A DNA stretch of 44,683 nucleotides from Deltaproteobacteria bacterium (lineage in GTDB: Bacteria; Desulfobacterota; Syntrophia; Syntrophales; UBA6807), in the NCBI GenBank assembly GCA_016936905.1, contig JAFGWZ010000123.1, forward strand, positions 1-44,683. Reading direction: 5' to 3'. Each line of letters begins with the position of its first letter. The stretch's first letter is position 1. The translations under genes and the position numbers were made by a program. This document shows, one piece after another, positions 1,243 to 25,531 of the stretch. The notes beneath the pieces are model-generated. The model was not told where the DNA came from and did not search any database. It saw only the letters and a list, made by a program, of their open reading frames with translations.

Positions 1243-1303
1243 CTGGCCTTCTCATCCGCTGATGACGGTACCGTGGCTCATACCGCTTTCATGAAGCTAA
1301 TAC

Positions 1304-1463
1304 TGATGGTCTCGAAAAGTCGGAGTAATGTGTCATTTCGAACGAATGTGAGAAATCTGTTCAGTATAAAATGTTATATTTACAAGATTTCTCCCGGAGT
1401 TTATCCCGATAAAATCGGGGGAAATGACATGAGAGGCTTTTTTGACTTTTTACGAAGCCGTCA
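1304..1463. mobile_element. MITE-like element: imperfect TIRs enclosing a TGTCATTTCG...GAAATGACA palindrome
   Basis: TGATGGTCTCGAAAAGTC (1304-1321) vs GACTTTTTACGAAGCCGTCA (1444-1463); inner IR 1331-1429; related copies at 14621 and 34390. Confidence 0.7.
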
Positions 1464-2141
1464 ATACTGTTGTAAATAACTTTTTATATACGCGGCCACC
1501 TTTTCTTTTTTTCTGAAAATCCCGAAGTGCCCTTCGCAGAGGATATCCGCCTCGAGACTCAGGAGCTTATCCATGGAGCGTCTCCATGCGGCAATATCCG
1601 AGCGGAAGCTGGGCAGAAAGGGACCGTGGATATCTTGGCCGAACAACACCCGGATGCCTCCCCGATCAATATACAGGGACATCGAGCCGGGCGTATGACC
1701 GGGCGTATGCAGGCAATGCAGTTCCTCTTCACCGTACCGCAGTATCTCGTGATCGCCTTTAAGGCGCCGGTCCACGGGGGTAGGCGGAAACTCCGTGTCA
1801 TACCAGTTTGCGGCGGTCAAAACGGGATCGCCCTGTTCAAGGGCGTCGGCGTCGAGATCGTGGATTACCAGTTCGCAGTTGAATGTATCCCGGAAATACG
1901 GCGCCGATCCGATATGATCGATATGGCAGTGGGTCAGGATGAGCGTTGATATATCATGGGGGTCGAAGCCGGCAGCGATGATATTCTCCACCAGTATGCC
2001 GGTGCTTCCGCCGGCGCCGGCATCAATCATCACCAGGTCGCCGCCTATTTCCACAAGAAATGACGTCGCGTCTGAAGAATGGGAAATATTCGGTCCGCCG
2101 ATCATATACACGCCGTCGGTTATCTCTTCCGACTTTCTCAC
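1461..2141 (-). CDS. MBL-fold metallo-hydrolase
   Basis: THCHIDHIG, HTPGHTPGS, EGH motifs; GTG start at 2141 behind GAGGAGG. Confidence 0.85.
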   Translation of the reverse strand: MRKSEEITDGVYMIGGPNISHSSDATSFLVEIGGDLVMIDAGAGGSTGILVENIIAAGFDPHDISTLILTHCHIDHIGSAPYFRDTFNCELVIHDLDADALEQGDPVLTAANWYDTEFPPTPVDRRLKGDHEILRYGEEELHCLHTPGHTPGSMSLYIDRGGIRVLFGQDIHGPFLPSFRSDIAAWRRSMDKLLSLEADILCEGHFGIFRKKEKVAAYIKSYLQQY

Positions 2142-2154
2142 GTCATTCCTCCTC

Positions 2155-3081
2155 TCAAATGGCAAGTGTGCCGATCAGGTCGTTCACATCCCCTATCTCT
2201 CGCTCCACCAAGTAGCGCTCGATCCCCTCCAGAACATCCAGGGTAGCACGGGGATTTATGAAATTCGCCGTTCCGATCTGCACTGCCGTCGCTCCCGCAA
2301 TGAGAAATTCGAGGGCATCCGAAGCGGTGGTGATTCCCCCGACACCGATAACAGGAACGGATGCCACTCGGGCCACGTCCCACACCATCCTCAGCGCCAC
2401 CGGCTTAATCGCCGGTCCCGACAGGCCACCGGTTATATTCTTCAGATGGGGAACCCTCTTCTCGACGTCGACAGACATCCCCCGGATGGTATTGATTAAC
2501 GACAAGGCATCGGCGCCTGCTCCTTCCACGCTCAGGGCAATCTCCGCTATATCCGTTACATTCGGCGTCAATTTTACGATAACAGGCAGGTCCGTCGCCG
2601 CTTTGACGCATCTCGTCACCTCCGCCGCGTCCCCGGGATGGGCGCCAAAAGCGATGCCTCCCTTTTTCACATTCGGACAGGATATATTTATTTCAAGGGC
2701 ATCCACGCCGGCCACGCCATTTAAGTGCTCGGCAATGCGGACATACTCGTCAAGGGTCTCTCCGAATATATTGGCAATAACGGCAACACTATGCCACCTG
2801 AGGTACGGAAGCTTGTCCGCCACAAATGCCTTGACTCCTATATTCTCAAGACCCACTGCATTCAACATCCCTGCCGGCGTTTCCATGATGCGGGGAGGCT
2901 CATTCCCCGGTCTCGGCTCGAGCGAGAGGCCTTTGACGACAACGGCCCCCAGCCTGTCAAGATCGACATAGGGCTCGAACTCCTCGCCGTAACCGAATGT
3001 TCCCGATGCCGTCATAACGGGATTCTTGATCTCAAGAGAACCGATCTTCACCTTCATTACCGGGTGTATGACATTCTCCAC
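2155..3081 (-). CDS. pyrD: Dihydroorotate dehydrogenase class 1B, catalytic subunit
   Basis: [36 protein letters not shown]; adjacent to pyrK. Confidence 0.95.
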
Positions 3082-3085
3082 GGCT

Positions 3086-3928
3086 TCACCAATCGATCAT
3101 CTTACTATCAAAAACGGGTCCGTCTTTACAGACCCGCCCGTATCGGACAGGCCGGCCATCGCTTTTCATTTTTACCGAACATCCGAGACAGGCGCCGATT
3201 CCACAGGCCATCCGGGCTTCCATCGATACCTGACAGGGAACGGAATAATCGCCGGCCATGAGGGCCACCCTTTTCATCATTTCATAAGGGCCACAGCAGT
3301 AGAGGATCAAATCGGCGGTGTCCATTGTTTTTGAATTGTCCACGAAACAGTCAGTCACCATGCCGCAATATCCCTCTCTCCCGTCATCGGTACTTACCAT
3401 AACGGCGTCACACAGCTGCTCCATTCGCTCCCGCCCGATGAGGCCGTCGGCGGTCCTTGCTCCCATGAAACAGACGAGCCTGGGTTTTTCCTCACCATGA
3501 ACGTTCTTTTTATTATAGTACTGGGCAAGGAAATGAAGAGGCGCAATACCGATGCCCCCGGCAATGAGGGCAACGGTTCGCCGATCATAACGGGTGTCAA
3601 ATCCTTTCCCCAAGGGACCGAGAATCGTCAATTCGTCGCCGGACCCCAGGCTGGAAAGCAACCGCGTTCCATCACCGACAACCTGATAGAGGATCTCCAT
3701 CGTCGACGCTTCCCCCTCACGGTACAGTGAATGAATACTGAACGGCCGTGGGAGAAAGGGAAACTCCCTTCCCCGCACCCGCACCATGACGAACTGCCCC
3801 GGCATGGCCGACTCAAAGCCATGAGGCACCGTCACGGTCATGAGAAACACATCTCTTGTCATCGGGTGATTCGAACGGATGATCCCGACTATGACAGCCC
3901 GGTTTGATTCCATTGCCTTATCACACAT
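3086..3928 (-). CDS. pyrK: Dihydroorotate dehydrogenase electron transfer subunit
   Basis: [29 protein letters not shown]...CKDGPVF [2Fe-2S] motif; start uncertain. Confidence 0.93.
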
Positions 3929-11327: not shown

Positions 11328-12011
11328 TTATAAACCGTTACCGGAGCGTTCACTGATAATCCGCTTCATCGCGGAGACAACACCGGTAATGTCGAGAGCC
11401 GTGCTGTCGATAATGATGGCATCTTCAGCTGCCATGAGAGGGGCGACAGACCGCCCCGAATCCTGCTGGTCCCGGGCCGACAGGCTTCTCTGTATCTCCG
11501 TGAATTCAACGTTTTCCCCTCTCTCGATGAGTTCTCTGTACCGGCGTCTGGCCCGCTCGTTGACGTCGGCAATGAGATAGAATTTAATATCCGCGTGAGG
11601 GAAAATAACTGTTCCCATATCACGTCCCTCGGCTACGACACCACCTGTCCTGCCGATTTCCTGCTGCAGCGAAAGGAGCCTCTCTCGGACAACGGGAACA
11701 GCCGATATCTGCGAAGCAAAGAAGCCCATTTCCTCTGTCCGTATTTTATCCGTCACATCGTCGCCATCGACTATGATCCTGACATTCGTGCCAACGGGTT
11801 TCACCTTTATGGTAATCTTCCCGCACAATCGTGAGAGGCCTTCCACGTCATTTGACATGATAGCTTCCTGGCGGGCACGGTAGGCAACCCCGCGGTACAG
11901 TGCTCCCGTATCAAGGTAAACATAGGAGATTTCCTCAGCCAGTGTCTTGCCGACCGTACTTTTTCCTGCTCCTGCCGGGCCATCGATAGTTATAACAAGG
12001 TTTCGGTTCAT
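11328..12011 (-). CDS. cmk: Cytidylate kinase
   Basis: ITIDGPAGAGKST, LDTGALYR, EGRDMGTVIFP; upstream of rpsA. Confidence 0.96.
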   Translation of the reverse strand: MNRNLVITIDGPAGAGKSTVGKTLAEEISYVYLDTGALYRGVAYRARQEAIMSNDVEGLSRLCGKITIKVKPVGTNVRIIVDGDDVTDKIRTEEMGFFASQISAVPVVRERLLSLQQEIGRTGGVVAEGRDMGTVIFPHADIKFYLIADVNERARRRYRELIERGENVEFTEIQRSLSARDQQDSGRSVAPLMAAEDAIIIDSTALDITGVVSAMKRIISERSGNGL

Positions 12012-12571
12012 TCTGTTTTTTTCTCATCCTGCTGGCGACGCATTTCAATGATTCGACTGTAGTACGGACCGTTTTCTCTCCATAACCAGCAGCTGTTCAG
12101 GAGCAGCGATAAATCGACCTCGGGGACCCTGACGGTATGCCCCTCCCTGTTTCTACTGTAATAAGCCCATTGCCCCTGGATCGCCGCTGAACCCATGCTG
12201 ATAATAAGGTTTGCCATATGAAGACAGCCGTTTGTCCCGCCGATCAACGTCCTGATCTTTTGCGTGAACCCCCGTTTTATCCGCAGGCCGACAAGCTTCT
12301 CAACCAGATTCTCAACTTCCCGACAGATGTCGTTCGGAACGGCCGCCATATCAGCTTCCGCGCCGGTAATTTCTATTTCCGGCAGGGATATGTTCATCCT
12401 GATGATAATATGATGAATCGCGCCAGGATCGATATGCCGCTTCGCCGAATAAAAATACGACGGGAAGAACCGGTCATCCTTCAATATCCCTTCAATCATG
12501 AGCCTGTTGTCACCGACCTCATAGGTGTTCACCGTAATATTTCTTGTGTGGATCAGCTCTTGTTTCTCCAC
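12008..12571 (-). CDS. DUF2889-like protein
   Basis: IHTR...IEG.LKD...IHH...C...LVGL.I..GF...GG..GC.H pattern; GTG start behind AAGGAG; stop overlaps cmk start. Confidence 0.7.
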   Translation of the reverse strand: MEKQELIHTRNITVNTYEVGDNRLMIEGILKDDRFFPSYFYSAKRHIDPGAIHHIIIRMNISLPEIEITGAEADMAAVPNDICREVENLVEKLVGLRIKRGFTQKIRTLIGGTNGCLHMANLIISMGSAAIQGQWAYYSRNREGHTVRVPEVDLSLLLNSCWLWRENGPYYSRIIEMRRQQDEKKTE

Positions 12572-12877
12572 GGCCGTCTCCTTCCAACGATATGCGGAAT
12601 GTATAGCACAGGGTCTATGCCTTAACAACAGTATTTTACGGGCGAATTACCGCCAGAAACGGCACCCTCCGGCCATCCCGCCATGATATGCTGATACAAC
12701 GTCACGGTGAAGACGATCACAAGAAACGGGACCATTCATCACTGTAAGACCCGTAACGACGGGGCAAGGTGACAGGTGTTGTAACGAGGATATCTGTCGC
12801 TTTATGAAACACGTCTTGATTATGGAAGGCAAAAACGGTAGGATAGCTGAATGAACGCATAAGGAGACTCCCGGAAC

Positions 12878-14317
12878 GTGCTGTTTCACCTCACATTAAG
12901 GGCGAAATGGGTCATTGTCACGATCACCATTGTTGCATTCTCCATGGCAATTGGCGCATCCTGCGCTCACGGGTCGTTCACCATACAGGATGAAGAAAAG
13001 CTGGGGCGGGAGTTCTATGAACAATTGAAATCCAAGGATATTCTGATCCACAATCCCCAGGTCTCCGACTACATCGATAAAATCGGGCGGCAGGTACTGG
13101 AACATGCCGACGATTCACCGTTTTCGTTTACCTTTTCGGTCATTGATAATTCAGGGATCAACGCCTTTGCCACTCCGGGAGGATACATCTATGTTTATGA
13201 TGGACTCATCAAGCTGGCGGAAAACGAATCACAGCTTGCAGGCGTCATAGCGCATGAAATCGCCCATGCCACGTCACGGCATATCGCTGAAGCAATTGAG
13301 AAATCCAAAAAAGTAAACATGGCGGCGCTCCTGGGAATTCTGGCCGGAGCCTTTCTGGGCGGCGGCGGGGAGGGAGCGGCAGCCATAACCAGCTTCTCAA
13401 TGGCTGCGGCGACGACGCTTAACCTGAAATACACCCGGGACAATGAGGAGGAGGCCGACCGCAAAGGCATGCGGTATCTCACCGCATCTGGCTATGACGG
13501 GAAGGCCATGCTTGACTTTCTGAAGATCATGAGAAGGTTTGAATATTTTTCGAATTCCATACCGTCCTATTTTCTCACCCATCCCGGTACGTCCGATCGT
13601 ATCAGATATCTCGACGGTCTGCTCCAGATGACATACACTCAAGGAGGAAAAAGCACTCTCATCGGCGGTCTGAACCGAATAAAGACCATCCTCGTTCTCG
13701 AACAGGATAATCTCAGTGAGAGCCTGAAATTCTTTCACAACGCCCTTTCTGAACATCCCGACAATCCGGATTTTACCTACGGCCTCGCCGTCGTTCAGGG
13801 AAAGCTGGGACAGACCGATGAAGCGCTGAAAAACTTCTTGAAGGCGCTCAGTCAATCGCCGGACGACGGAAGAATCCTTCGAGACCTCGGCATTTTCTAC
13901 TTCAACCAGGGAAAGGCACCCGATGCCTTGGAACCCCTGAAAAAAGCATATTATTTCAACCAAAACGACGCCACAACGATTCTGTACCTCGGCAGAACAT
14001 ATGAGGCCACGGGGAGCAATTTCGAGGCCCTTGAACTGTATGAAAAGTTTCAACGTGATAATCCGGACGACACCGCGATCTATTACAGCCTCGCCATGAT
14101 ATATGGGAAAACCGCTAATCCCGGAGAATCACACTATAACTTCGGAATCTACTTCAAGAAGATGAATAAAGACAAAAGCGCTCTCTTCCACTTCAAGGCG
14201 GCGCAAGACTACTTCCCCCCCTATTCTGATAAAGGACGATTTATTCAAAATGAAATCGACGAGCTCGAAAGTCCGCCCTCCCCTCACCGCAAACCTCCTC
14301 CTTCCCCCCTATCCTGA
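12878..14317 (+). CDS. M48 metalloprotease with C-terminal TPRs (BepA/YfgC-like)
   Basis: Signal peptide, INAFATPGG, HEIAH, E.EAD, YFLTHP, TPR helices. Confidence 0.9.
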   Translation: MLFHLTLRAKWVIVTITIVAFSMAIGASCAHGSFTIQDEEKLGREFYEQLKSKDILIHNPQVSDYIDKIGRQVLEHADDSPFSFTFSVIDNSGINAFATPGGYIYVYDGLIKLAENESQLAGVIAHEIAHATSRHIAEAIEKSKKVNMAALLGILAGAFLGGGGEGAAAITSFSMAAATTLNLKYTRDNEEEADRKGMRYLTASGYDGKAMLDFLKIMRRFEYFSNSIPSYFLTHPGTSDRIRYLDGLLQMTYTQGGKSTLIGGLNRIKTILVLEQDNLSESLKFFHNALSEHPDNPDFTYGLAVVQGKLGQTDEALKNFLKALSQSPDDGRILRDLGIFYFNQGKAPDALEPLKKAYYFNQNDATTILYLGRTYEATGSNFEALELYEKFQRDNPDDTAIYYSLAMIYGKTANPGESHYNFGIYFKKMNKDKSALFHFKAAQDYFPPYSDKGRFIQNEIDELESPPSPHRKPPPSPLS

Positions 14318-14595
14318 AAGGACGAACCGAACACTGCATGGAACGGCAAACACCTCAGGGATCGTGAATTCTGGTAACCATTACGCAGGGAACATTCCGG
14401 AATGAAAACGCTAACAGGTGGACTATCCTGCTATTTTTGCTTTTCATCTCATCGACCGGCACCATACGAGGCAACAAACAGTATATAGTTGACATGACAA
14501 ACCTTTTTCTGGTATCGAAAGGAACGTATCAGCAGTAATCAGAGATGACGGCATATGTGATGGATGGTGCCCTATTCCGTCCCATTGCATCTGAC

Positions 14596-14727
14596 GAAAG
14601 TTTTGCACAATGTCGATTGGTGTCATTTCGACCGAAGGGGAGAAATCTTGAATATCTAGATATCATTAAGATTTCTCGTCGCCATTGCTCCTCGAAATGA
14701 CATAAAACAAAGATATGCAAAGCTATC
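14596..14727. repeat. TGTCATTTCG...CGAAATGACA palindrome (14621-14702) inside an imperfect outer inverted repeat
   Basis: Inner AGAAATCTT/AAGATTTCT stem; outer GAAAGTTTTGCACA / TATGCAAAGCTATC. Confidence 0.7.
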
Positions 14728-14790
14728 CTGACAACGGATTCATAGTATCCACAAAATTGACTCCTGCTCGATTGGGAATGAGACAACGGT

Positions 14791-16119
14791 ATGAGGAATA
14801 AAAAAGCTACGGGATTCACCATTGCTGCCGCGTGGATTGCAGTCTGCCTTCTTACGGGATCATTTTCCTCTGCGTCCGCAGTGACCCCATGGACGGAACA
14901 GCAGAAGCAGTCGTTAATCCCCGAGGCGTTGATTAACCTGTCATCGAACTATGCTGTTGTTGTCGACAAACAGATGCAGCGGCTTTACGCATTTCGGCAG
15001 AACCACGAGGGCATGGAAAAGGTTTTTGAAGCGCCGTGCTCTACCGGAAAAAACAGCGGTCCGAAGATGATCTCCGGAGACGGCAAGACGCCGGAAGGAA
15101 TTCTATTCGCGACGAGAATATACAGAGACAAAGACCTTTCATCAACCTATGGATGCCTTGCGTTTCATCTTAACTATCCGAACATCATGGACCGTCTTGA
15201 AGGAAAAGACGGAAACAATATATGGATCCATGGAACGGATAAAAAACTCCGCGCATTTCAGACAAACGGGTGCGTCGCACTGACGAATCAAAATATCCAG
15301 GATCTCTCGACGTTTATAAAGCTGGACAAAACTCCGATAATTATAAAAAATTCTATTACATGGGTTCAGGAAGCAACGCTCCATCCCATAAAAAGCGAAC
15401 TCGAATCGATGATGAACTTATGGTGGGAGGCATTGAGGAGCGGTGATCTTCAGCAGATGAACATCTTCTATGATTCTGAAAAATCAATGGACCGCCTCAG
15501 TCTCGAAGCGCTTTCGGACAAAATAGCCTCATGGAAACGCATGGACATACCTGTCTCGTGCTTTGCTGAAAACATTTCCATCCTGCGCGACGATCGGTAT
15601 ACCGTCATTACATTCGACCAGGTGATCGCGTATAAGGACCAATCCTGGAAGTGCGGCAGCCGCAAACTTTTTCTGAAGAAAAACAGTGACCGATGGAGCA
15701 TAAAAGGTGAGAGGGTCCCTCCCGAGAGCACGGGCGCACAGTTCGCCGCCCGGATCAACGAAATCGGCGATGCAATCGCATCCAGAATAGATATTGAAAA
15801 TATGATCGTACAGTGGGTAAAAAGCTGGCAATCGGGTGACATGAAAAAGTACAGATCACATTACGCGCCTGATTTCAAGGGATACGGGATGAACCTGACC
15901 CAATGGTTGCACTATAAGGCCGGCCTGACCGCCGTAAACAAGAATATCCGTATTACCATCGAAAACCTGAAGGTAATCCCGGGGACAGCAACGGCAGTCG
16001 CTATTTTCAGCCAGCGATATGAGTCGACGGGTCACAGCGATCTTGGAACAAAAAAGCTGAGGCTCAAGATGATCAATAATCGATGGAAGATCGTCAGAGA
16101 ATCTTGGAAAGCATTATAA
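14791..16119 (+). CDS. L,D-transpeptidase/carboxypeptidase (YkuD domain) with two NTF2-like C-terminal domains; Csd6/Pgp2-like
   Basis: Signal peptide, STGK..GPK...GD.KTPEG, LNYPN, IWIHG...TNGC catalytic His/Cys; repeated W..SW.SGD...Y and K.L...W.I..E modules. Confidence 0.85.
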   Translation: MRNKKATGFTIAAAWIAVCLLTGSFSSASAVTPWTEQQKQSLIPEALINLSSNYAVVVDKQMQRLYAFRQNHEGMEKVFEAPCSTGKNSGPKMISGDGKTPEGILFATRIYRDKDLSSTYGCLAFHLNYPNIMDRLEGKDGNNIWIHGTDKKLRAFQTNGCVALTNQNIQDLSTFIKLDKTPIIIKNSITWVQEATLHPIKSELESMMNLWWEALRSGDLQQMNIFYDSEKSMDRLSLEALSDKIASWKRMDIPVSCFAENISILRDDRYTVITFDQVIAYKDQSWKCGSRKLFLKKNSDRWSIKGERVPPESTGAQFAARINEIGDAIASRIDIENMIVQWVKSWQSGDMKKYRSHYAPDFKGYGMNLTQWLHYKAGLTAVNKNIRITIENLKVIPGTATAVAIFSQRYESTGHSDLGTKKLRLKMINNRWKIVRESWKAL

Positions 16120-16125
16120 AATAGC

Positions 16126-16866
16126 ATGGCAGCCAACGATACGCACATGAATGCCGATAAGAAATCACACAAATGGACCATTCTCGTAATCGGAGACCAC
16201 AAGCAACTGGGAACCTATGAGATCAGGAAGAGCACATTTACCGCAGCCGTTGCGGCCGTTATCGGGATAATACTCATCGCCATAGTGTTTATCTGGTTTC
16301 TGAGTACCTCGGATCTGCGCATACAGAATGACCTGCGGGAACGGCTTGCCGCCAGCGAACAATCAATTGATTCGGTAAAGCAGGAAAATGCAGATTTATC
16401 GAAGAGGATCAGGGAAATGGAAGATGCCCTTGCTGCAACCTTTAAAGAAGGGACGGGTGATAAAGGTGAGTCTCCCGTCACCTCACCGGATCACTTTAAC
16501 AAAATGGCGGTGGAAAACTTCGAGATCAATTTAGATAAGCCCTCGGACTCGCTTCATTTCAAGTTCCTGCTCCGCAACACCGCCTCATATAACAATCCTA
16601 TCTCCGGTAATATTTTTGTCATCCTCAAGCCGGAGTACCTGGACGCTTCAACGTGGAGCTGTTATCCGAAAGCGGAATTGACCGGTGGAAAACCGCAGAA
16701 CAGTGCCAGTGGAGAATTGTTCACCATCGCCCGCTTCAAAACAATCCGGGGATCATTCACCACAGTGCCGCAACGGATGGAGCAATTCTTCATTTCCGTG
16801 TGGGTTTTCTCCGATGATGGCAAACTCATTATGACAAAAGATTTCTTCATACGAAAGGAACTGTAA
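16126..16866 (+). CDS. Hypothetical bitopic membrane protein with coiled coil
   Basis: TM helix (VAAVIGIILIAIVFIWFL), heptad-rich segment, beta-rich C-terminus; 6-nt gaps to both neighbours. Confidence 0.75.
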   Translation: MAANDTHMNADKKSHKWTILVIGDHKQLGTYEIRKSTFTAAVAAVIGIILIAIVFIWFLSTSDLRIQNDLRERLAASEQSIDSVKQENADLSKRIREMEDALAATFKEGTGDKGESPVTSPDHFNKMAVENFEINLDKPSDSLHFKFLLRNTASYNNPISGNIFVILKPEYLDASTWSCYPKAELTGGKPQNSASGELFTIARFKTIRGSFTTVPQRMEQFFISVWVFSDDGKLIMTKDFFIRKEL

Positions 16867-16872
16867 AAAAAT

Positions 16873-18705
16873 ATGAATCACAGCCGCCATGGCAGGGAAG
16901 GAACAACCATCAGCTTCTGCTCATATATCGTTATCATTCTGACACTGTTGCTCTCTATGACGGCGGCAGTGACGCCTGCATTCGGGAAATCCACCCATGA
17001 AACGTTTTTCGCCGGCACCGACTATGAACTGAATGTATACAGAATTCAGGGAAAGACGGCAGGTAAAACTATCCTTATCATCGGAGGGATTCAGGGAGAC
17101 GAACCGGGAGGGTTTCTGTCCGCAGATTTATACGCAGACATGCGGCTGGAAAAAGGAAACCTCATCGTTGTGCCCCGGGCCAACTTCTATTCCATTCTCC
17201 TCAACCAACGCCAGGTCAATGAAGACATGAACCGCAAGTTCTCGAAGACATCGCAACGAAACTTCGAGACGCATGTTGTCACCATTCTCAAGGGGCTCAT
17301 TGAGGAAAGCGACTGCCTTCTGAACCTTCATGACGGATCGGGATTCTATTCGGAAACATGGCAGAACGACATGAGAAACCCCATGAGGTTCGGACAGTCC
17401 ATCATCGCTGACTGCGAAGAGTACAATGATCCGAAGACTGGCTCGGTGATTAACCTTGGGGACATGGCACGAAAAGTAATCGAAGAAATCAACAAGAATA
17501 TCCAGAGCCCTCAATTTTTTTTCAAATTCAACAACCATAAAACCAATGATGCAACAACCCTTCATCCGGAACAGCGGAAGTCGGCTACCTATTACGCCCT
17601 TTTCACCTGCGGAATTCCCGCCTTCGGAATCGAATCAAGCAAGACGCTCCCCCTCGATAAAAGAATTCTCCATCACAAACTGGCCGTCAACTCGTTCATG
17701 AAGATGTTTGATATCCAGCCTGAGATTCCCGGGATCACCATGGAAAAACCGACCATGAAATATGTCGTCGCCCAGGTCAATGATCAAACCCCGATTGTCA
17801 TCGCCGATGGAGAGACATTGGATATTGTCAAGGGTGACACCATCAAAATAACGAACATCGAGGGGAATTACCAGAGAGGCTACACAGTAGACATAGAAGG
17901 ATACGGATCCATCAACGATCTCCATAAACCATTCTCCATCATGGAAGAGACTCGTGTTGTCGTCCGAAAGGATCACAGCATCTGCGGGAACATCGCCATC
18001 TCCCTCCAAGGCAGAGGAAAGTCACCCCATGCCATAACGAAAACTCCCCGCGTCGTTTACTTCAAATGCAGAATTAATCGAAAAGACGTCTATTTCCCCA
18101 ATGGCACCCATGTTGACATCCTGAAGGGGGACCAGATCGAACTTGTTGACGTCAGCACGTTCCCCGAGTCATGCCCGGGACTGTCCGTCAATCTCAAGGG
18201 ATTTGTTCCCGATGGACCCGTTAATGAAGGCGAGGACCGTGGCCACATCGTCAATACCGACAGAGACCTCTGGACGCGCTACTCACTCTATAACAAAGGA
18301 CGGATCTACCAGGCCGTCGTCATGAAAGACGAAAAGCAGGTCATCGGGCGGCTGTTCTTCGACATTGCCGATCCCTCTTTCCAGTACATCGTTTTTCAGA
18401 TAAACAGCGGCGTCAAGCGATGCTTCTTCCCGAACGATACGATCACTATCAGTCAGGATGATTCGATAAAACTGATAGACATAAAGACCAATGTGCCGCA
18501 GAATTTTAACGTCACCACCTGGCTGAATGGAAGTGACTTCAAGCTTCCCCTTCAGGTGGGAAGTTCCATTGATGGGAAAACGGTCCACGATAACGGCAGT
18601 CCATGCGAAATATTCGTTACGAGGGGAGAGATGAAAATCGGGCGGATCGCGCTCGATATATCGGGCAGGCAATTGGCCCGGTCAAGCCGATGCAACGGTC
18701 AGTGA
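16873..18705 (+). CDS. M14/M99-family peptidoglycan carboxypeptidase, Csd4/Pgp1-like
   Basis: GGIQGDEPGG (QxxE), DMNRKF, LNLHDGSGFY, NPMRFGQSII.D, AFGIESSK; N-terminal hydrophobic segment; C-terminal beta-rich domains. Confidence 0.85.
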   Translation: MNHSRHGREGTTISFCSYIVIILTLLLSMTAAVTPAFGKSTHETFFAGTDYELNVYRIQGKTAGKTILIIGGIQGDEPGGFLSADLYADMRLEKGNLIVVPRANFYSILLNQRQVNEDMNRKFSKTSQRNFETHVVTILKGLIEESDCLLNLHDGSGFYSETWQNDMRNPMRFGQSIIADCEEYNDPKTGSVINLGDMARKVIEEINKNIQSPQFFFKFNNHKTNDATTLHPEQRKSATYYALFTCGIPAFGIESSKTLPLDKRILHHKLAVNSFMKMFDIQPEIPGITMEKPTMKYVVAQVNDQTPIVIADGETLDIVKGDTIKITNIEGNYQRGYTVDIEGYGSINDLHKPFSIMEETRVVVRKDHSICGNIAISLQGRGKSPHAITKTPRVVYFKCRINRKDVYFPNGTHVDILKGDQIELVDVSTFPESCPGLSVNLKGFVPDGPVNEGEDRGHIVNTDRDLWTRYSLYNKGRIYQAVVMKDEKQVIGRLFFDIADPSFQYIVFQINSGVKRCFFPNDTITISQDDSIKLIDIKTNVPQNFNVTTWLNGSDFKLPLQVGSSIDGKTVHDNGSPCEIFVTRGEMKIGRIALDISGRQLARSSRCNGQ

Positions 18706-18737
18706 CGTGCACAACGCGACAGCGGGGATTGTATCTG

Positions 18738-19163
18738 TTGAAAAAAAGCGGAAAGAACATTTCAATCATCAACAAAGACTGCCACATGGAAGGCATATTT
18801 GATGTCAAAGGGCATCTTATCGTGGCGGGCACCCTCACGGGAAGGCTGAACGCCGAGACAGTCATAACAGAAGCAGGAAGCGTAATAAGGGCCGATATTA
18901 CGGCAACATTTATGACCATTGCGGGGGAATTCCACGGCGAGATCACCACAAGAGAAACCCTTACGCTCCTGAAGACATCGGACGTCAGAGCATGCATACG
19001 GTGCGGCAAGCTCGTTATCCAGGAAGGGTGCACCATTAATGGAAAAATCTGCCCCCTCCCCCCCCGCTTACAATCGGATCACGATCATCAGACCGGCCTC
19101 TTACCGAACGTCCCCGAACAAGAACAACCAGATGAAAGCACCGACAGTGTTTCACCCAGTTGA
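18738..19163 (+). CDS. Bactofilin (polymer-forming cytoskeletal protein, CcmA-like)
   Basis: SII...MEG.....G.L.V.G...G...I.G...G.I...L.IQEG..ING beta-helix pattern; TTG start inferred. Confidence 0.85.
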   Translation: MKKSGKNISIINKDCHMEGIFDVKGHLIVAGTLTGRLNAETVITEAGSVIRADITATFMTIAGEFHGEITTRETLTLLKTSDVRACIRCGKLVIQEGCTINGKICPLPPRLQSDHDHQTGLLPNVPEQEQPDESTDSVSPS

Positions 19164-19180
19164 GGGAGGCCACGCCCGGC

Positions 19181-20173
19181 ATGAATGACAAACGACGGAA
19201 ACTTGCGACAATCGGGGGAGGAAGCGGACAGTTCTCCCTCCTGTTCGGTTTGAGGGATATCGACTTCATCGATATTACGGCCATCGTTTCGATGGTCGAC
19301 AGCGGCGGGAGTACCGGCAGGCTGCGTGACGAACTGGGCATCCTGCCGCCCGGCGACCTCCTTAAGTGTGTCCTCGCCCTGTCGCCGCACCGCGATATGG
19401 TGAGGGCTATCCTGTTGAAACGATTCAGCGGTGACGGACGTCTGCAGGGGCACAACGCGGGAAATATGCTCCTCACCATGCTGGCGGAATATACGGGCGA
19501 TTTTTCTGCCGGTGTCAGGGCGCTCGCTGAAATTCTGGATGCCCGTGGTACCATACTGCCCGTCACGGTGGACAAAGCGACGCTCGTTGCGGAGCTGACC
19601 GACGGGAACCGCGTCTACGGTCAGAGCGCGATCGACATACCCCGTGACACACAGCGGGAACGGATCAGGGATATCTATCTCGTTCCCCACCATCATGACT
19701 CCATATCGGTTTATCCTCCTGTTATTGAAGCCATCACCTGCGCCGACTACATCGTCATCGGTCCCGGCGACCTGTACACGAGCATCGTCCCCAACCTCAT
19801 CGTTCCCGGCGTAAAAGAGGCATTCCGGCAAACAAAGGCAGCGGTGCTGTACGTCGTCAATATCATGACAAAGTTCGGAGAAACCCACAATTTCAGTGGA
19901 TTCGATTTCGTCAAAAAGGTTGAAGAATACATAGGAAGAAACGTCGACGGGGTGATCTACAACACCACCAGGCCGAATCAGAAGATACTCAAACAATACC
20001 GTCAGCAAAGGGCAGAGTTCGTCGAAATTGAAGATTATGGCGAGGTATGGGGAAGTCGAACCGTCTATGCAAGGGACCTGATGAGCACAGCCGGCGGTAT
20101 TGTACGTCACGACTCGAAAAAACTGGCGTCCCTCATTTCCAGAATTGTCTCCTCTCGTATGTCTGCTCCATGA
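19181..20173 (+). CDS. yvcK: YvcK/GlmR (UPF0052) UDP-GlcNAc-binding family protein
   Basis: IGGGSG, VSMVDSGGSTGRLRDELGILPPGD, GH.AGN, IGPGDLYTSIVPNL, RHDS. Confidence 0.92.
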   Translation: MNDKRRKLATIGGGSGQFSLLFGLRDIDFIDITAIVSMVDSGGSTGRLRDELGILPPGDLLKCVLALSPHRDMVRAILLKRFSGDGRLQGHNAGNMLLTMLAEYTGDFSAGVRALAEILDARGTILPVTVDKATLVAELTDGNRVYGQSAIDIPRDTQRERIRDIYLVPHHHDSISVYPPVIEAITCADYIVIGPGDLYTSIVPNLIVPGVKEAFRQTKAAVLYVVNIMTKFGETHNFSGFDFVKKVEEYIGRNVDGVIYNTTRPNQKILKQYRQQRAEFVEIEDYGEVWGSRTVYARDLMSTAGGIVRHDSKKLASLISRIVSSRMSAP

Positions 20174-20218
20174 TCTTCGTCCCCTGACGCAGTAATAACC
20201 GGCGGCAGACGGGGAATT

Positions 20219-20266
20219 GAAGCTCCCCGCAACAAGTTGCGGGGAATGCGCTCGCTGTTCAGTTCA
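20219..20266. repeat. REP-like hairpin between convergent genes
   Basis: TCCCCGCAAC-AA-GTTGCGGGGA 10-bp inverted repeat (20224-20245). Confidence 0.55.
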
Positions 20267-21253
20267 TCCCGTTTCATCATCAATGTTCGATCGACAATGA
20301 AAGCCTGCATCGCCTGGCAGAACGGAAACGCGCGGCGACGGATGCCGTTCAGCCGGCAGTTTCCGCGCCACTATGAATATCCAGAGCTGAGAAACAAGCA
20401 TACCGAAGAGCATCAACCCGCACCCCGACATCTGCCGGGGGGACATGGTCTCTCCCAGCAGGGCCCAGCCGCCGAGGGCGGCAAATACCGATTCGAGGCT
20501 GAGAATAATAGCGGCATGGGCGGGATGAGCCCGTCGCTGGCCTATGACCTGGAGGGTATACGCGATGCCCACAGACATAACTCCTCCGTAGAGGAGGGGA
20601 ACGGCGGCCCGCAAAATACCATCCCTCGTAACGGGCTCATACAGAACTGCAACGATCAGGCTGAGGAGTGAACAGGCACCGTATTGAATAAACGCCAGCC
20701 GGAATGAATTCATCTTCGGCGAGAGCCAGCCGATGATCAGGACATGAGCGGCAAAGAAAACAGCACAGAAAAGGACAAGCACATCACCGAAAGCAATGGT
20801 AAACTGCTGAGAAATGCTTAGGAAATAGAGGCCTGCCGAGGCAAGGACCGCTCCGACCCATGTCCCTGCCGTTGTCCGCTGTCCCCAAAAGAGCGCGAGC
20901 AGCGGCACGATGATGACATACAGGCCGGTAATGAATCCTGCTTTGCCCGCCGTCGTATAAACGAGGCCCACCTGCTGGAGCGATGCGCCTGCGAACAGCA
21001 TCAGCCCGGCGGTAGCACTGCCGATAAGAAGGGTGACCCTTCCAACCTTTTCGCCTGTCCGGGGTTTATGATTTCTTTCATTTTTTCCGACAATGAGGGG
21101 GAGCAGTACGCCACAGCCGAGGGCAAAACGAATCCCGTTAAAAAGAAAGGGGCCGATATAATCCATACCGACCCGCTGGGCAACGAAGGCGAATCCCCAT
21201 ATGATTGCTGTGGTAAGCAAAATCGTATCCGATTTGAATGTCTCGGTGTTCAT
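20264..21253 (-). CDS. DMT/EamA family transporter
   Basis: IWGFAFVAQ, GKAGFITGLY, AAIILSLESVFAAL.G..LLGE; start MNTE behind GGAGG. Confidence 0.9.
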   Translation of the reverse strand: MNTETFKSDTILLTTAIIWGFAFVAQRVGMDYIGPFLFNGIRFALGCGVLLPLIVGKNERNHKPRTGEKVGRVTLLIGSATAGLMLFAGASLQQVGLVYTTAGKAGFITGLYVIIVPLLALFWGQRTTAGTWVGAVLASAGLYFLSISQQFTIAFGDVLVLFCAVFFAAHVLIIGWLSPKMNSFRLAFIQYGACSLLSLIVAVLYEPVTRDGILRAAVPLLYGGVMSVGIAYTLQVIGQRRAHPAHAAIILSLESVFAALGGWALLGETMSPRQMSGCGLMLFGMLVSQLWIFIVARKLPAERHPSPRVSVLPGDAGFHCRSNIDDETG

Positions 21254-21269
21254 TAACCTCCACATAAAA

Positions 21270-21410
21270 GGCCTTGGGCTAAGGGCTCAAGGCTAAAGGA
21301 AAAAACAAACAAATTCAGACAACGGGAAAGACTCGTTTGGAGTCTCTTTAACCCTTCGCCTATTTACGTTTTACGATATCCGATATCCGTTTTACGTTTT
21401 ACGATTTACG
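21270..21410. repeat. Heptamer tandem arrays (GGCTNAR family and WTWTMCG family)
   Basis: GGCCTTG GGCTAAG GGCTCAA GGCTAAA; ATTTACG TTTTACG ATATCCG ATATCCG TTTTACG TTTTACG ATTTACG. Confidence 0.8.
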
Positions 21411-21434
21411 CTTACCCATTTCCCCTTCCCCGGC

Positions 21435-23573
21435 CTACTGCGTATCCTCCGATACGGCACCTGCCGCGGGAAGATAGAACCGCTGAGCGTAATCCTTGAC
21501 CATGCGATCTGCGTTGAAGCGCCATCCCAGGCTCTGTATCGCATGTTTCATCATCCTGACCCAATGATGGGGGGTTCCACTTTCGTTTCTGTCATAATAA
21601 AGAGGTATGATTTCTTTTTCGAGCGCTTCATAGAGATAGTCTCCGTCCCGTTGGTACTGGATCGTTTCTTCGTTATGCATTCCTCCATGGCCGATGGCAA
21701 ATCCATTTCGCCCGTCATATGCTTCGTTCCACCAGCCATCAAGAACCGACAGGTTCAACCCGCCGTTGAGAACAACCTTCTGGCCGCTTGTCCCGCACGC
21801 TTCGAGAGGCCGCCGGGGATTGTTCAGCCAGACATCAACGCCTTGAACAAGATGGCGGCCCACATTGTAATCGTAATCCTCGACAAAAACGATTCTGTTC
21901 CGGCAGGCGGGATCATGGCTGTACCGGACGATTCGCTGCAGCAACTGTTTGCCTGAATCGTCCCGGGGATGCGCCTTGCCCGCGAAAACGATCTGAATCG
22001 GCCGGCGCGAATCTCCGATGAGCCTGGCAAGGCGGTCGGGCTGAGACAAAATAAGATCCCCCCGTTTGTACGTTGCAAACCGCCTGGCACAGCCGATGGT
22101 CAGGATATCAGGATCAAGGATCTGGTCGATCTGCTTGAGAATCTCCTTTTGTCCCAAGCGCTGTGCCTGTCGCTGCAACCTGCGACGGACGAAACGGATG
22201 AGACGCATCTTCAGGCTCTGGTGGGTTTCCCACAATTCTCCATCATCGATATCTTTGATTTTTTCCCATACCTCGGTGTGAACCATCCGCGTCGCCCAAT
22301 CCTGGCCGAGGCGGGTCTCAAACAACTGATTCATCTGGGGGGAGAGCCACGATAACACATGCACCCCGTTGGTGATATGCCCGATGGGAACTTCCAACTC
22401 GGGCCGTTCCGGCCAGAGGGGATGCCACATCAAACGGCTCACCCCGCCGTGTATCGACGAGACACCATTCGCCCGGCATGCGTTCTTCAGGGCTAAAACG
22501 GTCATACAGAAGGGCTCCGTTGTATCTCCGGGATTGACCCGCCCCAGTGCCATGAACTCGTCATGGTTCAGTCCAAGTTTTTCCCTCATGATGCCGAGAT
22601 GCTCTTCCATAAGATCCCCCGGAAAGCGGTCGTGGCCCGCGGCTACCGGAGTGTGCGTCGTGAAAACGGTGTACAGTGAAACCCGTCGCCGCGCTCTGTG
22701 GAAGGGAATCTGGTCATACGCCATAACTCTTCGGATCTCTTCAAGTATCGCAAACGCGCTGTGCCCTTCGTTCAGGTGAAGGACTCCCGGGTAAATATTC
22801 AGCGCCTGGAGGATTCGGGCGCCGCCGATGCCGAGAAGCAGTTCCTGCCGGATACGCAGCCGCTCATCGCCCCCATAGAGCCGGGATGTCAAACAACGAT
22901 CGTCCGCCGTGTTTCCCTCTATATTGGAATCGAGAAGCATCAGGCGAATTCTGCCCACCTGCACCTCCCATACCCTGGCCAGCAACGACCCGCTTCGAGC
23001 ATCGATCTGGATAATCAACGGCTCACCGCCGGCATCTTTCACAGGAGATGCCGGTGAGAGGGCGATATCAAGGGCGGCGTAGTCCTCCTCCTGCCAGCCG
23101 TCGCCGTTGAGGCGCTGCTTGAAATAACCCTGATCGTAAAGGAGCCCGATCCCGATCAGCGGGATACCCAGATCGGACGCACTCTTGAGATGATCGCCGG
23201 CGAGAATTCCCAGACCGCCTGAATAGATGGGCAGTGATTCATGAAGGCCGAACTCTGCTGAAAAATAGACAACGGGCCTGCTGCGGAGGTTGCCGCAGTG
23301 TATGTTCCCCCACGTTTTCTCCTTATTCAGGTATTCGTTCAGCCGCCGGAAGGCATAATTGATTCGACTGTGGAGCACGAGCTCGGCTGCCCTTTGTTCC
23401 AGTTTTTCCGGTGTGACCCGAGACAGAAAGGCTATCGGATTATGGTCAACTTCCCGCCACACCTGCGGATCGAGGTCGGTAAATATGCTGATAACCTCAG
23501 GATGCCACGTCCACCAGAGATTGCGGGCCAATACGCTGAGCCGTTCATGAAGACTGCTGATCTCATCTTTCAT
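21435..23573 (-). CDS. glgP: Alpha-glucan (glycogen) phosphorylase
   Basis: YFSAEFG...YSGGLGILAGD, HLNEGH, ARRFATYKR, EACGTSGQK PLP site. Confidence 0.95.
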   Translation of the reverse strand: MKDEISSLHERLSVLARNLWWTWHPEVISIFTDLDPQVWREVDHNPIAFLSRVTPEKLEQRAAELVLHSRINYAFRRLNEYLNKEKTWGNIHCGNLRSRPVVYFSAEFGLHESLPIYSGGLGILAGDHLKSASDLGIPLIGIGLLYDQGYFKQRLNGDGWQEEDYAALDIALSPASPVKDAGGEPLIIQIDARSGSLLARVWEVQVGRIRLMLLDSNIEGNTADDRCLTSRLYGGDERLRIRQELLLGIGGARILQALNIYPGVLHLNEGHSAFAILEEIRRVMAYDQIPFHRARRRVSLYTVFTTHTPVAAGHDRFPGDLMEEHLGIMREKLGLNHDEFMALGRVNPGDTTEPFCMTVLALKNACRANGVSSIHGGVSRLMWHPLWPERPELEVPIGHITNGVHVLSWLSPQMNQLFETRLGQDWATRMVHTEVWEKIKDIDDGELWETHQSLKMRLIRFVRRRLQRQAQRLGQKEILKQIDQILDPDILTIGCARRFATYKRGDLILSQPDRLARLIGDSRRPIQIVFAGKAHPRDDSGKQLLQRIVRYSHDPACRNRIVFVEDYDYNVGRHLVQGVDVWLNNPRRPLEACGTSGQKVVLNGGLNLSVLDGWWNEAYDGRNGFAIGHGGMHNEETIQYQRDGDYLYEALEKEIIPLYYDRNESGTPHHWVRMMKHAIQSLGWRFNADRMVKDYAQRFYLPAAGAVSEDTQ

Positions 23574-23878
23574 ATGCACCCCCTTTGGGCCCGTTATGCA
23601 CGAGCGCTCCATGTCCGAAAGTTATAGCAGTTACTATGGAATATTCAAGTAAAAACAAATCATTCTGCCTTTTACCTCAGAAAATATTTTATGTGTCCAG
23701 TGCTGACCATCACACTTTTCGATGGCGATCCGTTGATTTTATATTGAGTTGAACAGACAAAATATACTACAAGTTACTTGTCGAACATGACAAAGAAACC
23801 GGGGTGCTGTGATCGAATAGCAACGGTCACCGCCAACGAATGGATAGTGCATACAATCGTCGAAAAGAGGTACGAGAG

Positions 23879-25531
23879 ATGTCGCTTCATGTTTTAGCAG
23901 GCAAGCCGGCCCCTCCTTCCATGCTCATCAACGTTCCGCAGGTTGTGAGCAGCTATTATCGTTTACACCCGGACATAGCGGATCCCGCTCAGTCAGTTGC
24001 ATTCGGAACCTCGGGGCACCGCGGTTCCTCGCTGAGAAAGAGTTTTAATGAGACCCATATTGTCGCCACGACACAGGCGATATGCGATTACAGGAAGGAA
24101 CGGGGCATTACCGGCCCCCTGTTCATAGGGAAAGATACCCATGCCCTCTCAGAACCGAGTCATGCAACGGCGCTTGAGGTACTCGCCGCCAATGGCGTCG
24201 TTGTTATGGTTCAGAAAGATTCGGGGTACACCCCGACCCCGGTCATTTCGCATGCCATTCTTACCCACAACAGGGGAAAAACAACGGGCCTCGCCGACGG
24301 GATCGTCATTACTCCCTCTCACAATCCTCCCGACGACGGCGGCTTTAAATACAATCCTCCTCACGGGGGTCCCGCCGACGTGAATGTAACGGAATGGATC
24401 GAGGGCAGAGCCAACGACCTTATAAGGCACGACAACAAAGAGGTAAAACGTATGCCCTACGAACGGGCCATACAAATGGAAACCTGTCACGAAATGGACT
24501 ACATACTCCCCTATGTCAACGACCTCACTACCATCATCGACATGGATGCCATTCGGTCGAGCGGTATAAAGATCGGCGTCGACCCCCTGGGCGGCGCTTC
24601 GGCGCCATACTGGCACCCCATTGCCGAAGTGCACAACCTCGATATTCACGTTGTCAATCCCGTTGTCGACCCAACATTCGGGTTCATGACCGTCGACAAA
24701 GACGGAAAGATCAGGATGGATTGTTCCTCCCCCTATGCCATGGCGGGGCTGATCAGATTGAAGGATTCGTACAACATCGCTTTCGGGAATGACCCGGACG
24801 CCGATCGACACGGCATCGTCACCGGAAGCGCAGGCCTGATGAACCCCAACGCCTACCTCGCCGCGGCCATTTATTACCTGTTTCAGCACCGGCCGGGCTG
24901 GAGCGATCGTGCGGTCATCGGGAAAACCCTCGTGAGCAGCGGCATGATCGACCGTGTGGCTCAGCGGTTGAACCGTGGAGTTTCCGAAGTCCCGGTAGGA
25001 TTCAAATGGTTTGTCGAAGGCCTGCTCGACGGATCGTACGGATTCGGCTGCGAAGAGAGCGCCGGGGCCTCATTCCTTCGAAAGGATGGAACGGTCTGGA
25101 CAACCGACAAAGACGGGATCATCATGAATCTCCTGGCGGCTGAAATGACCGCGGTCATGGGGCGTGATCCCGGCGAACTCTATGACGAATTAACAGAGCA
25201 GCTTGGAACGCCCTTTTACGAAAGGCTCGACGTGCCGGCGACACCGGACCGGAAAGCACTGTTGAAAAAACTCACGGCAGGCAATATCCATGCGTCAACG
25301 CTGGCAGGTGAACCCATACTGGCCGTCCAGACGGAGGCGCCGGGGAATAATGCATCCATCGGCGGTGTGAAGATCGTATCGCAGAACGGATGGTTCGCCG
25401 CCAGGCCGTCGGGAACTGAAGATATCTATAAAATCTATACGGAAAGCTTTAAAAGCAGGGAACACCTGTCCCGAATACGGGAAGAAGCGATCGCCATTGT
25501 TGACGAAGTATTCAAATCTCACGGTTTATGA
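23879..25531 (+). CDS. pgm: Phosphoglucomutase (alpha-D-glucose phosphate-specific)
   Basis: [37 protein letters not shown]. Confidence 0.95.

Follow-up and report, generated by a model that had tools for sequence, protein, structure and literature searches.

A conserved operon for two putative peptidoglycan-trimming enzymes, a bactofilin and a candidate membrane adaptor in Desulfobacterota, and its recent junction with yvcK

In Helicobacter and Campylobacter, the enzymes that trim peptidoglycan, the bactofilin and the membrane linkers were discovered one by one, and in H. pylori the genes for these components are scattered. The route from a cytoplasmic bactofilin to trimming in the periplasm is still debated. 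The locus described here lies in a 44,683-nucleotide stretch of DNA (referred to below as the window), positions 1 to 44,683 of contig JAFGWZ010000123.1 in assembly GCA_016936905.1 from a bacterium of the Syntrophales (Desulfobacterota). Four adjacent genes at positions 14791-19163 encode an LD-carboxypeptidase-type enzyme (Csd6L), a membrane protein termed TMcc, a DL-carboxypeptidase-type enzyme (Csd4L) and a short bactofilin, and these probably form a four-part machine for trimming peptidoglycan stem peptides where a cytoskeletal polymer dictates. That both kinds of enzyme stay together with a bactofilin and a candidate linker in a single operon across many Desulfobacterota is comparative evidence for a single machine.

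The closest described systems each offer one part of this picture. In H. pylori, the cytoplasmic binding partner of Csd5 is the bactofilin CcmA, and its periplasmic ones are Csd4 and peptidoglycan (PMC9507126, PMC4220969). LmdC of Hyphomonas neptunium and Rhodospirillum rubrum is a bitopic M23 endopeptidase recruited by BacA via a cytoplasmic beta-hairpin, which binds BacA with a dissociation constant of ~15 µM (PMC10945521). The survey of bactofilin neighbours published with that work covers 226 species and concerns M23 peptidases only, its main text being without the word ‘carboxypeptidase’ (PMC10945521). According to the study of the Bdellovibrio enzyme Bd1075, there is no known mechanism by which a protein is targeted to one side wall (PMC8938487). 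Full-text literature searches, with subscription journals and supplements outside their scope, found no paper describing an operon with Csd6, Csd4 and bactofilin. The present module belongs with the bactofilin-hydrolase morphogenetic modules, and extends to carboxypeptidases a theme that has been published for M23 endopeptidases. The adaptor family is new; TMcc represents a concrete, testable linker family described by no database.

Five open reading frames (ORFs) run head to tail on the plus strand between 14791 and 20173, with gaps of 6, 6, 32 and 17 nucleotides (nt), the fifth being yvcK. An initial annotation made from the sequence had taken them for five co-oriented genes in one apparent operon. 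The ORFs were confirmed, as was every family call when Pfam and NCBIfam hidden Markov models were applied, with YkuD, Peptidase_M99, Bactofilin and YvcK (TIGR01826) all scoring above cut-off. Judged from gene neighbourhoods in other genomes, the conserved unit is nevertheless the first four genes, 14791-19163, with yvcK outside it.

A search for Csd4L in 41 related genomes gave a match in 11, the window's own included. The protein is full-length in seven of them (the window's own, G000, together with G001, G002, G004, G028, G010 and G033), and the order Csd6L-TMcc-Csd4L-bactofilin is the same in the six others. A scan of genome records with a TMcc alignment returned 20 loci, all in metagenome-assembled genomes (MAGs) and six of them already found in the related genomes, under the labels Syntrophales or Syntrophaceae, Desulfobacterales, Desulfobacterium, Ca. 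Desulfaltia and Thermodesulfobacteriota. These were examined with 6 kb of flank on each side, and 28 further loci with 1.5 kb. At 19 of the 20 loci a bactofilin gene lies downstream of the TMcc relative (at the remaining one the contig ends), and at 18 Csd6L lies upstream. Csd4L sits between TMcc and bactofilin in 15, while in four (L042, L048, L049 and L052) TMcc is followed directly by the bactofilin gene; TMcc also stands beside bactofilin without Csd4L at L055, L075, L080 and L082. The genes that flank the module vary between loci. Among the 28 further loci, 15 have Csd6L-TMcc-Csd4L and nine have a bactofilin gene in reach; in all, 24 have a partner gene. Across the phylum, evenly sampled, 56 of 401 genomes carry a member of the TMcc family. 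Synteny at the 20 and the 28 loci thus upholds the proposal of a dedicated, conserved module of Csd6-like enzyme, membrane protein, Csd4-like enzyme and bactofilin outside Campylobacterota. It does so for the four-gene set (19, 18 and 15 of the 20) and not for yvcK, which is adjacent at 0 of the 20.

Several observations weigh against the four-part machine. Because the genomes counted are kin, the counts attest to conservation but cannot be treated as independent trials, and the carriers in the 20-locus scan are all uncultured MAGs. At four of the 28 further loci no partner lies within 1.5 kb. In G015, the TMcc-bactofilin pair (L055) and a Csd6L-Csd4L pair are found ~500 kb apart on the same chromosome. 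The module may be built of two separable halves.

Short Csd6L-Csd4L pairs, with a Csd4L of 307 residues and without TMcc or bactofilin alongside, are seen at L022 and L023 (in G015 and G036).

Csd6L (14791-16119, 442 residues) has a signal peptide, a YkuD domain (PF03734, residues 54-185, 67 bits against a cut-off of 23.4) and a Cds6_C NTF2-like domain (PF24125, residues 335-437, 69 bits against a cut-off of 27). The tandem arrangement of NTF2-like domains claimed at the outset is borne out. Residues 203-304 align with residues 334-434 (BLASTP, E 3e-6), indicating a diverged duplication of which Pfam detects the second domain only, and a shorter relative (L022) has one NTF2 domain, which matches both halves. 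By sequence, the nearest solved protein is Bd1075 (PDB 7O21, E 1e-44), followed by Csd6 (4XZZ, E 8e-22) and Pgp2 (6XJ6, E 7e-18). Assignment to the LD-carboxypeptidase family therefore stands, whereas the description of the enzyme as Csd6-style gives way to a closer likeness to Bd1075. The N-terminal dimerisation domain of the Csd6/Pgp2 type is absent from Csd6L, whose predicted signal peptide and YkuD domain are only ~25 residues apart, and because of this absence it is assigned to the Bd1075 type; the alignment of the two begins at Csd6L residue 28.

The structure 7O21 is that of Bd1075, with H141, A142 and C156 given as catalytic residues, and with Y274 and W303 of the NTF2 pocket required for targeting to the convex face of the cell (PMC8938487). 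According to the same source, the pocket residue two positions beyond the cysteine is Arg in LD-transpeptidases, Ala in Csd6 and Pgp2, and Val in Bd1075 (PMC8938487). Once these positions had been mapped onto the Csd6L alignment (chain numbering plus 5), H147, G148, C161 and A163 of Csd6L were found at the equivalent catalytic and pocket positions, H147 and C161 aligning with H141 and C156. The Tyr (in QRYES) and the Trp (in the C-terminal ESW) that match Y274 and W303 are also kept. In related loci the His/Cys motif is visible in 35 of 38 Csd6-like ORFs, and at Cys+2 these 35 carry Ala (21 ORFs), Val (8) or Thr (6), and never Arg. Like Bd1075, Csd6 and Pgp2, then, Csd6L combines a YkuD domain bearing the His/Cys dyad and, behind it, a Cds6_C NTF2-like domain with a residue other than Arg at Cys+2; with Bd1075 it also shares the short N-terminus, the matching Tyr, and an extended NTF2 end bearing the matching Trp. 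It differs from all three in having two tandem NTF2-like domains where the solved proteins have one, and in that its gene shares an operon with those of a Csd4-type enzyme, of a bactofilin and of TMcc. Csd6L is a member of this family with an intact active site, and is predicted to act as an LD-carboxypeptidase.

Csd6L could be read otherwise. The Ala at Cys+2 is common to YafK/DpaA-type amidases, so that sequence leaves the substrate unsettled, and the best NCBIfam match of the protein is LdtF_DpaA_YafK, at 39 bits, far under the cut-off of 365. The module might serve general wall maturation or recycling without regard to shape, its trimming being cell-wide and, for example, limiting 3-3 cross-links or lipoprotein attachment. 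Csd6L could then be a YafK/DpaA-like amidase freeing wall-bound proteins, with bactofilin and TMcc acting in another role, such as division or polar organisation. In favour of this alternative, TMcc has sub-threshold DivIC- and ZapG-type coiled-coil matches; these, however, are under every cut-off and typical of any coiled coil. Set against it are the above-threshold Cds6_C NTF2 domain of Csd6L and the identity of its best solved relatives, which are three shape-determining LD-carboxypeptidases that make cells curved or helical. Moreover, Csd6L is tightly and widely linked with bactofilin and with a Csd4-type enzyme, and shape is the sole studied role of the latter. A role independent of shape is thus considered unlikely.

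In two genomes the Csd6-like gene is split into two ORFs (L019/L038 and L020/L041), with differing split points. At L024 (G025, contig C2, 7723-10455, minus strand) the Csd6-like region forms the C-terminal half of a 910-residue ORF, for the N-terminal ~490 residues of which no Pfam family was found.

Csd4L (16873-18705, 610 residues) is a secreted protein with a Peptidase_M99 domain (PF17033, residues 61-281, 137 bits against a cut-off of 27), and it is the sole Peptidase_M99 protein in the host genome. Against H. pylori Csd4 in the PDB it gives E 2e-29 over the catalytic domain. The QxxE...H metal motif of Csd4 (Q46, E49, H128) is described as ‘strictly conserved in Csd4 homologues’, and R86, R94 and the general base E222 are named beside it (PMC4220969). 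The corresponding residues of Csd4L, Q74, E77, H153, R113, R121 and E254, align with these and are invariant in seven orthologues.

The AlphaFold2 model of Csd4L has a predicted local distance difference test (pLDDT) score of 76.8. Foldseek ranks Csd4 first for this model (E 1.7e-24 over 483 columns; runner-up 3e-10), and VIA-align places residues 52-499 on residues 19-438 of the Csd4 chain with Z 29.0, encompassing all three Csd4 domains, the runner-up (Z 19.6) matching the catalytic domain only. The root-mean-square deviation of 12 Å reflects differing domain orientations. Residues 52-499 thus correspond to the whole of Csd4. As the match ends at residue 499, residues ~500-600 are an extra beta-domain, a weak repeat of the first beta-domain; profile self-comparison with hhalign aligns residues 288-360 with 496-566 at a probability of 86%. 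The Pfam models for the middle and C-terminal parts of M99 stay below significance on Csd4L (Peptidase_M99_C, E 0.067). The call of an M99-type carboxypeptidase is therefore retained, with the correction that the protein has an extra C-terminal domain beyond the Csd4 architecture. Compared with Csd4 and Pgp1 (PDB 4WCK, 4Q6M), Csd4L has the QxxE..H motif, the equivalents of Arg86, Arg94 and Glu222, and the three-domain fit. It differs in its ~100 more C-terminal residues with the further beta-domain, and in that 307-residue forms without the C-terminal beta-domains exist in related genomes. From these likenesses, DL-carboxypeptidase activity is expected of Csd4L.

Near the end of the signal peptide some Csd4L orthologues have a Cys where the window copy has Gly, and lipoprotein anchoring has been considered. 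The Csd4-like gene is split into two ORFs at three loci (L043, L046 and L056); the splits in the Csd6-like and Csd4-like ORFs may represent frameshift, decay or assembly error.

The short bactofilin (18738-19163, 141 residues, start uncertain) matches Pfam PF04519 with 69 bits over profile positions 1-97 of 98 (cut-off 27.9). Its frame is open from 18603, and ATG 18690, GTG 18702 and TTG 18729 or 18738 are candidate starts. Alignment shows the orthologues to start at the residue matching TTG 18738; were the start ATG 18690 or GTG 18702, the 32-nt gap behind Csd4L would become an overlap. Orthologues in the module have 108-120 residues and end ~30 residues before the window copy, whose last ~30 residues are a tail found in this genome only. 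The module bactofilins begin with MKxxxKN-ISIIN directly before the core, without an MFSK-like N-terminus, whereas the second bactofilin of the host genome (155 residues) begins MVSFFKK. Short bactofilins of this form would be compatible with the need for a membrane partner. The gene for the second bactofilin (L002, contig C42, 1366-1833) has a rodA/ftsW-type gene directly in front of it and genes for the ATP synthase b-subunit (atpF) behind it.

TMcc (16126-16866, 246 residues) is a bitopic coiled-coil membrane protein of no named family. It comprises a basic cytoplasmic tail (residues 1-37), a transmembrane helix (~38-59), a coiled-coil helix to ~106, a low-confidence linker and a seven-strand beta-sandwich (127-243). 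In the AlphaFold2 model pLDDT is 65 overall and ~75-80 in the beta-domain. No Pfam or NCBIfam model reaches its cut-off on TMcc; below threshold there are coiled-coil matches in addition to the DivIC- and ZapG-type ones. A word-indexed homologue search found six close relatives only, whereas a HMMER search with a 13-sequence profile against 1.84 billion cluster representatives found 1277 proteins at E ≤1e-3, 822 of them at ≤1e-10. Among 18 relatives sampled, 16 are without a Pfam family, one has a LysM and one a SPOR domain, both of them wall-binding domains.

The tail of TMcc carries the motif W-T-I-L-V-I-G-D...K. Across 131 family members this consists of a basic run, W (82%), T (66%), three hydrophobic residues, G (66%), D (52%) and G (84%), and then an alternating stretch to K (67%) directly before the transmembrane helix. 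Such conservation on the cytoplasmic side calls for a partner in the cytoplasm, and bactofilin is the sole cytoplasmic product of the module. The beta-sandwich, at the other end of the protein, is fused to the C-terminus of a Csd6-like enzyme at L066, L069 and L074, in three genomes (independent E 6e-23 to 2e-19), and a Myxococcota cluster with YkuD and Cds6_C aligns structurally to the TMcc sandwich with a TM-score of 0.51. The initial annotation had seen the protein starting at 16126 as a membrane scaffold, and this fits its place as the most constant bactofilin partner of the module by synteny. TMcc is proposed to be an adaptor between cytoplasmic bactofilin and the periplasmic trimming enzymes.

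Other identities for TMcc were considered. DUF6776 (PF20567), an ESM Atlas lead at 0.87, was rejected, with no Pfam match at E ≤0.1 and nothing on the window in a genome search. Pfam finds no M23 (PF01551) domain in TMcc, the four M23 genes of the genome lying elsewhere, and no SH3 family, the modelled head being a seven-strand sandwich of ~120 residues.

In role, TMcc resembles Csd5 or LmdC; it is a member of neither family. With Csd5 it has in common a short cytoplasmic N-terminal tail, one transmembrane helix and a non-enzymatic periplasmic head, the proposed role is alike, and it is encoded together with the genes for a Csd4-type enzyme and a bactofilin. It differs from Csd5 in lacking an SH3 domain and in bearing an Ig-like seven-strand head on a coiled-coil stalk, and no sequence relation between the two was found. 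The likeness to LmdC lies in the ~37-residue tail with a strand-turn-strand-like motif, the transmembrane helix, the periplasmic coiled coil and the bactofilin-adjacent gene. Here the difference is that the head of TMcc is a non-catalytic beta-sandwich, and that the hydrolases of the module are separate carboxypeptidases. When the N-terminal part of TMcc was compared by hhalign with a profile of 30 bitopic M23 peptidases of the phylum, the probability was 94.8% (E 5e-8, 93 columns), with the motif in register and WTILVIGD placed on YTLLLIPE. It can be suggested, tentatively, that TMcc belongs to a large class of bactofilin-to-periplasm adaptors which share the docking motif of LmdC (a W/F/Y-T-hydrophobic strand, a turn and a basic strand) and carry exchangeable heads. 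If this were true, bactofilins would place quite different wall enzymes via one common handle, and in Desulfobacterota this handle would couple the cytoskeleton to a full line of trimming, from tetra- through tri- to dipeptide, encoded by one operon. Such an operon would be the first compact genetic system in which to study how periplasmic trimming is steered to one cell face by a polymer in the cytoplasm.

A number of results tell against a common docking motif, or against TMcc as an adaptor at all. With the hairpin region alone, the match to the M23 profile is weak (probability 25%, E 8e-4), and the composition of transmembrane and coiled-coil segments can inflate the longer alignment. The comparison was computed from M23 proteins of the phylum. 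The genes for these hairpin-bearing M23 proteins, at most putative LmdC orthologues, lie beside bactofilin at 0 of 30 loci within 1.5 kb. In the AlphaFold2 model, residues 1-30 of the TMcc tail are unfolded and form no hairpin (pLDDT 39-47). At the other end, Foldseek against the PDB retrieves for the sandwich only generic Ig/FN3-like glycosidase accessory domains (E ~1e-3, TM-score 0.22-0.32). A complex prediction of the bactofilin core (1-112) with the TMcc tail (1-38) gave a score of 0.00 in a run without controls, which is no verdict and counts neither way.

Since the contact between TMcc and bactofilin is inferred, and the tail is unfolded in the model, TMcc might instead be a regulator or inhibitor of both peptidases, or a wall-binding spacer, that makes no contact with bactofilin, the gene order reflecting co-expression only. 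A precedent exists in H. pylori, where the membrane protein Csd7 stabilises a hydrolase (PMC9507126). This explanation is judged quite unlikely, as TMcc remains beside bactofilin at the eight loci named above where Csd4L is absent, and the strongly conserved cytoplasmic motif would be left without its required partner.

On the preferred reading, in which TMcc connects bactofilin to the two enzymes, the machine would work as follows. Csd6L, once exported, would remove the terminal D-Ala from tetrapeptides as an LD-carboxypeptidase, as do Bd1075, Csd6 and Pgp2, and its NTF2 domains would bind the wall and help to position the enzyme. Csd4L, also exported, would remove meso-diaminopimelic acid from the resulting tripeptides as a DL-carboxypeptidase, as do Csd4 and Pgp1. 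The short bactofilin would polymerise in the cytoplasm. TMcc would span the inner membrane with its conserved cytoplasmic tail docked on the bactofilin, and in the periplasm its stalk and beta-sandwich would hold or guide both enzymes, or bind the wall beside them. The local loss of cross-linkable peptides would alter wall growth on one side or in one zone of the cell, leading to a change of cell shape in the form of curvature, twist or local constriction.

The gene behind the module, yvcK (19181-20173), encodes a CofD-like protein that matches TIGR01826 with 290.6 bits over profile positions 2-309 of 310 (cut-off 196) and Pfam CofD with 264 bits. On these scores it is a true member of the YvcK/GlmR family, the full-length match above a curated cut-off being its likeness to the Bacillus subtilis protein; the difference is its placement behind a bactofilin gene, which is specific to this lineage. 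The frame is open from 19160, and the likely start is ATG 19181, preceded by the Shine-Dalgarno sequence GAGGGAGG. In Bacillus the arrangement is rapZ-yvcK-whiA. In the host genome a rapZ/yvcJ-like gene (L086, contig C24, 583-1377) has an M23 peptidase gene as its neighbour and is distant from yvcK, and therefore that arrangement is not kept.

It was initially suggested that all five genes form one unit, with YvcK/GlmR as a UDP-GlcNAc sensor that ties the supply of precursors to localised trimming. The gene does start only 17 nt past the bactofilin stop on the same strand, with a Shine-Dalgarno sequence of its own, its product is a genuine family member, and the junction is no artefact. In a second sample (X2), a contig of 737 nt spans 18555-19291 with zero mismatches, and a 151-nt contig from a related strain in another study (X4) spans 19131-19281 with seven differences; these independent contigs rule out an assembly chimera as the origin of the adjacency. 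Comparison with other genomes nevertheless makes a five-gene unit improbable. No yvcK lies beside the module at any of the 20 TMcc loci within the 6-kb flanks, two congeners included, and none was seen in the 10 related-genome Csd4L loci or, within their short flanks, in the 28 further loci. In G001, G002 and G004 (two congeners and one family member) yvcK is on contigs other than the module's. The G002 block yvcK-EamA-GlgP-PGM is collinear with 19181-25531 of the window and has another gene upstream, and the block cmk-DUF2889-M48/TPR-module is collinear with 11328-19080 and then continues into a sigma-54 response regulator.

The junction itself can be placed at 19080-19180. In blastn comparisons with the G001, G002 and G004 loci, the module block is matched as far as 19066-19079 and the yvcK block from 19180 onwards. 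The 100 nt between the breakpoints lie inside the 3' end of the bactofilin gene and encode its unique tail of ~30 residues; thus the rearrangement also replaced the end of that gene. GC content steps from ~0.47 (14-18 kb) to ~0.53 (18-30 kb) at ~18000, near the junction. Since similarity breaks in this way, the adjacency of bactofilin gene and yvcK appears to be a recent, lineage-specific rearrangement. In this lineage yvcK is probably co-transcribed with the operon. With no adjacency in the 20 related loci, the link to precursor sensing is unsupported; the comparative evidence lends no support to a functional tie, and yvcK would not be a working part of the module. What this window adds of its own is the YvcK adjacency, best explained by rearrangement, and the precursor-sensing part of the first reading is to be dropped.

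The window lies in ordinary chromosome of a 2.5-Mb MAG in 301 contigs, estimated at 87% complete. Upstream of the module are cmk, a DUF2889 gene and the gene of an M48-TPR protease, which is found there in the window's genus; downstream of yvcK are genes for an EamA transporter, a glucan phosphorylase, a phosphoglucomutase and a branched-chain amino acid ABC transporter. In G004 (L018, contig C99) a divergent gene upstream of the module (704-3544, minus strand) encodes a 946-residue SPOR-TPR protein, and TPR proteins are also encoded upstream of it in G010 and G033 (L020, L021). Contigs from an RNA library span 17617-17836 and 18725-18888, a weak hint of expression given that DNA carry-over is possible. 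Among the contigs listed for run X1, the likely sample of origin, little of 14884-20187 is represented, a gap to which no weight is given. A scan of 14200-20500 for promoters and terminators gave counts as in shuffled sequence (10 against 6.8±2.8 and 7 against 7.3±2.7), and an Rfam scan of 14000-20600 gave zero matches at E ≤0.1.

Two repeats lie outside the module proper. A repeat of ~130 nt with an internal palindrome, resembling a miniature inverted-repeat transposable element, occupies 14596-14724 and ends 66 nt 5' of the first start codon of the operon. At least 20 near-full-length copies (79-98% identity) are present in the host genome, several at contig ends, and in metagenome runs the contigs that hold it are of very high depth and have loose ends. 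Between the convergently oriented yvcK and EamA genes, a GC-rich hairpin of the repetitive extragenic palindromic type (CCCCGCAAC..GTTGCGGGG) lies at 20215-20266, where it may act as a terminator. It has 57 more matches in the host genome, often paired 75-85 nt apart, and in metagenome runs its contig depth reaches 9232, with many unlike loose ends.

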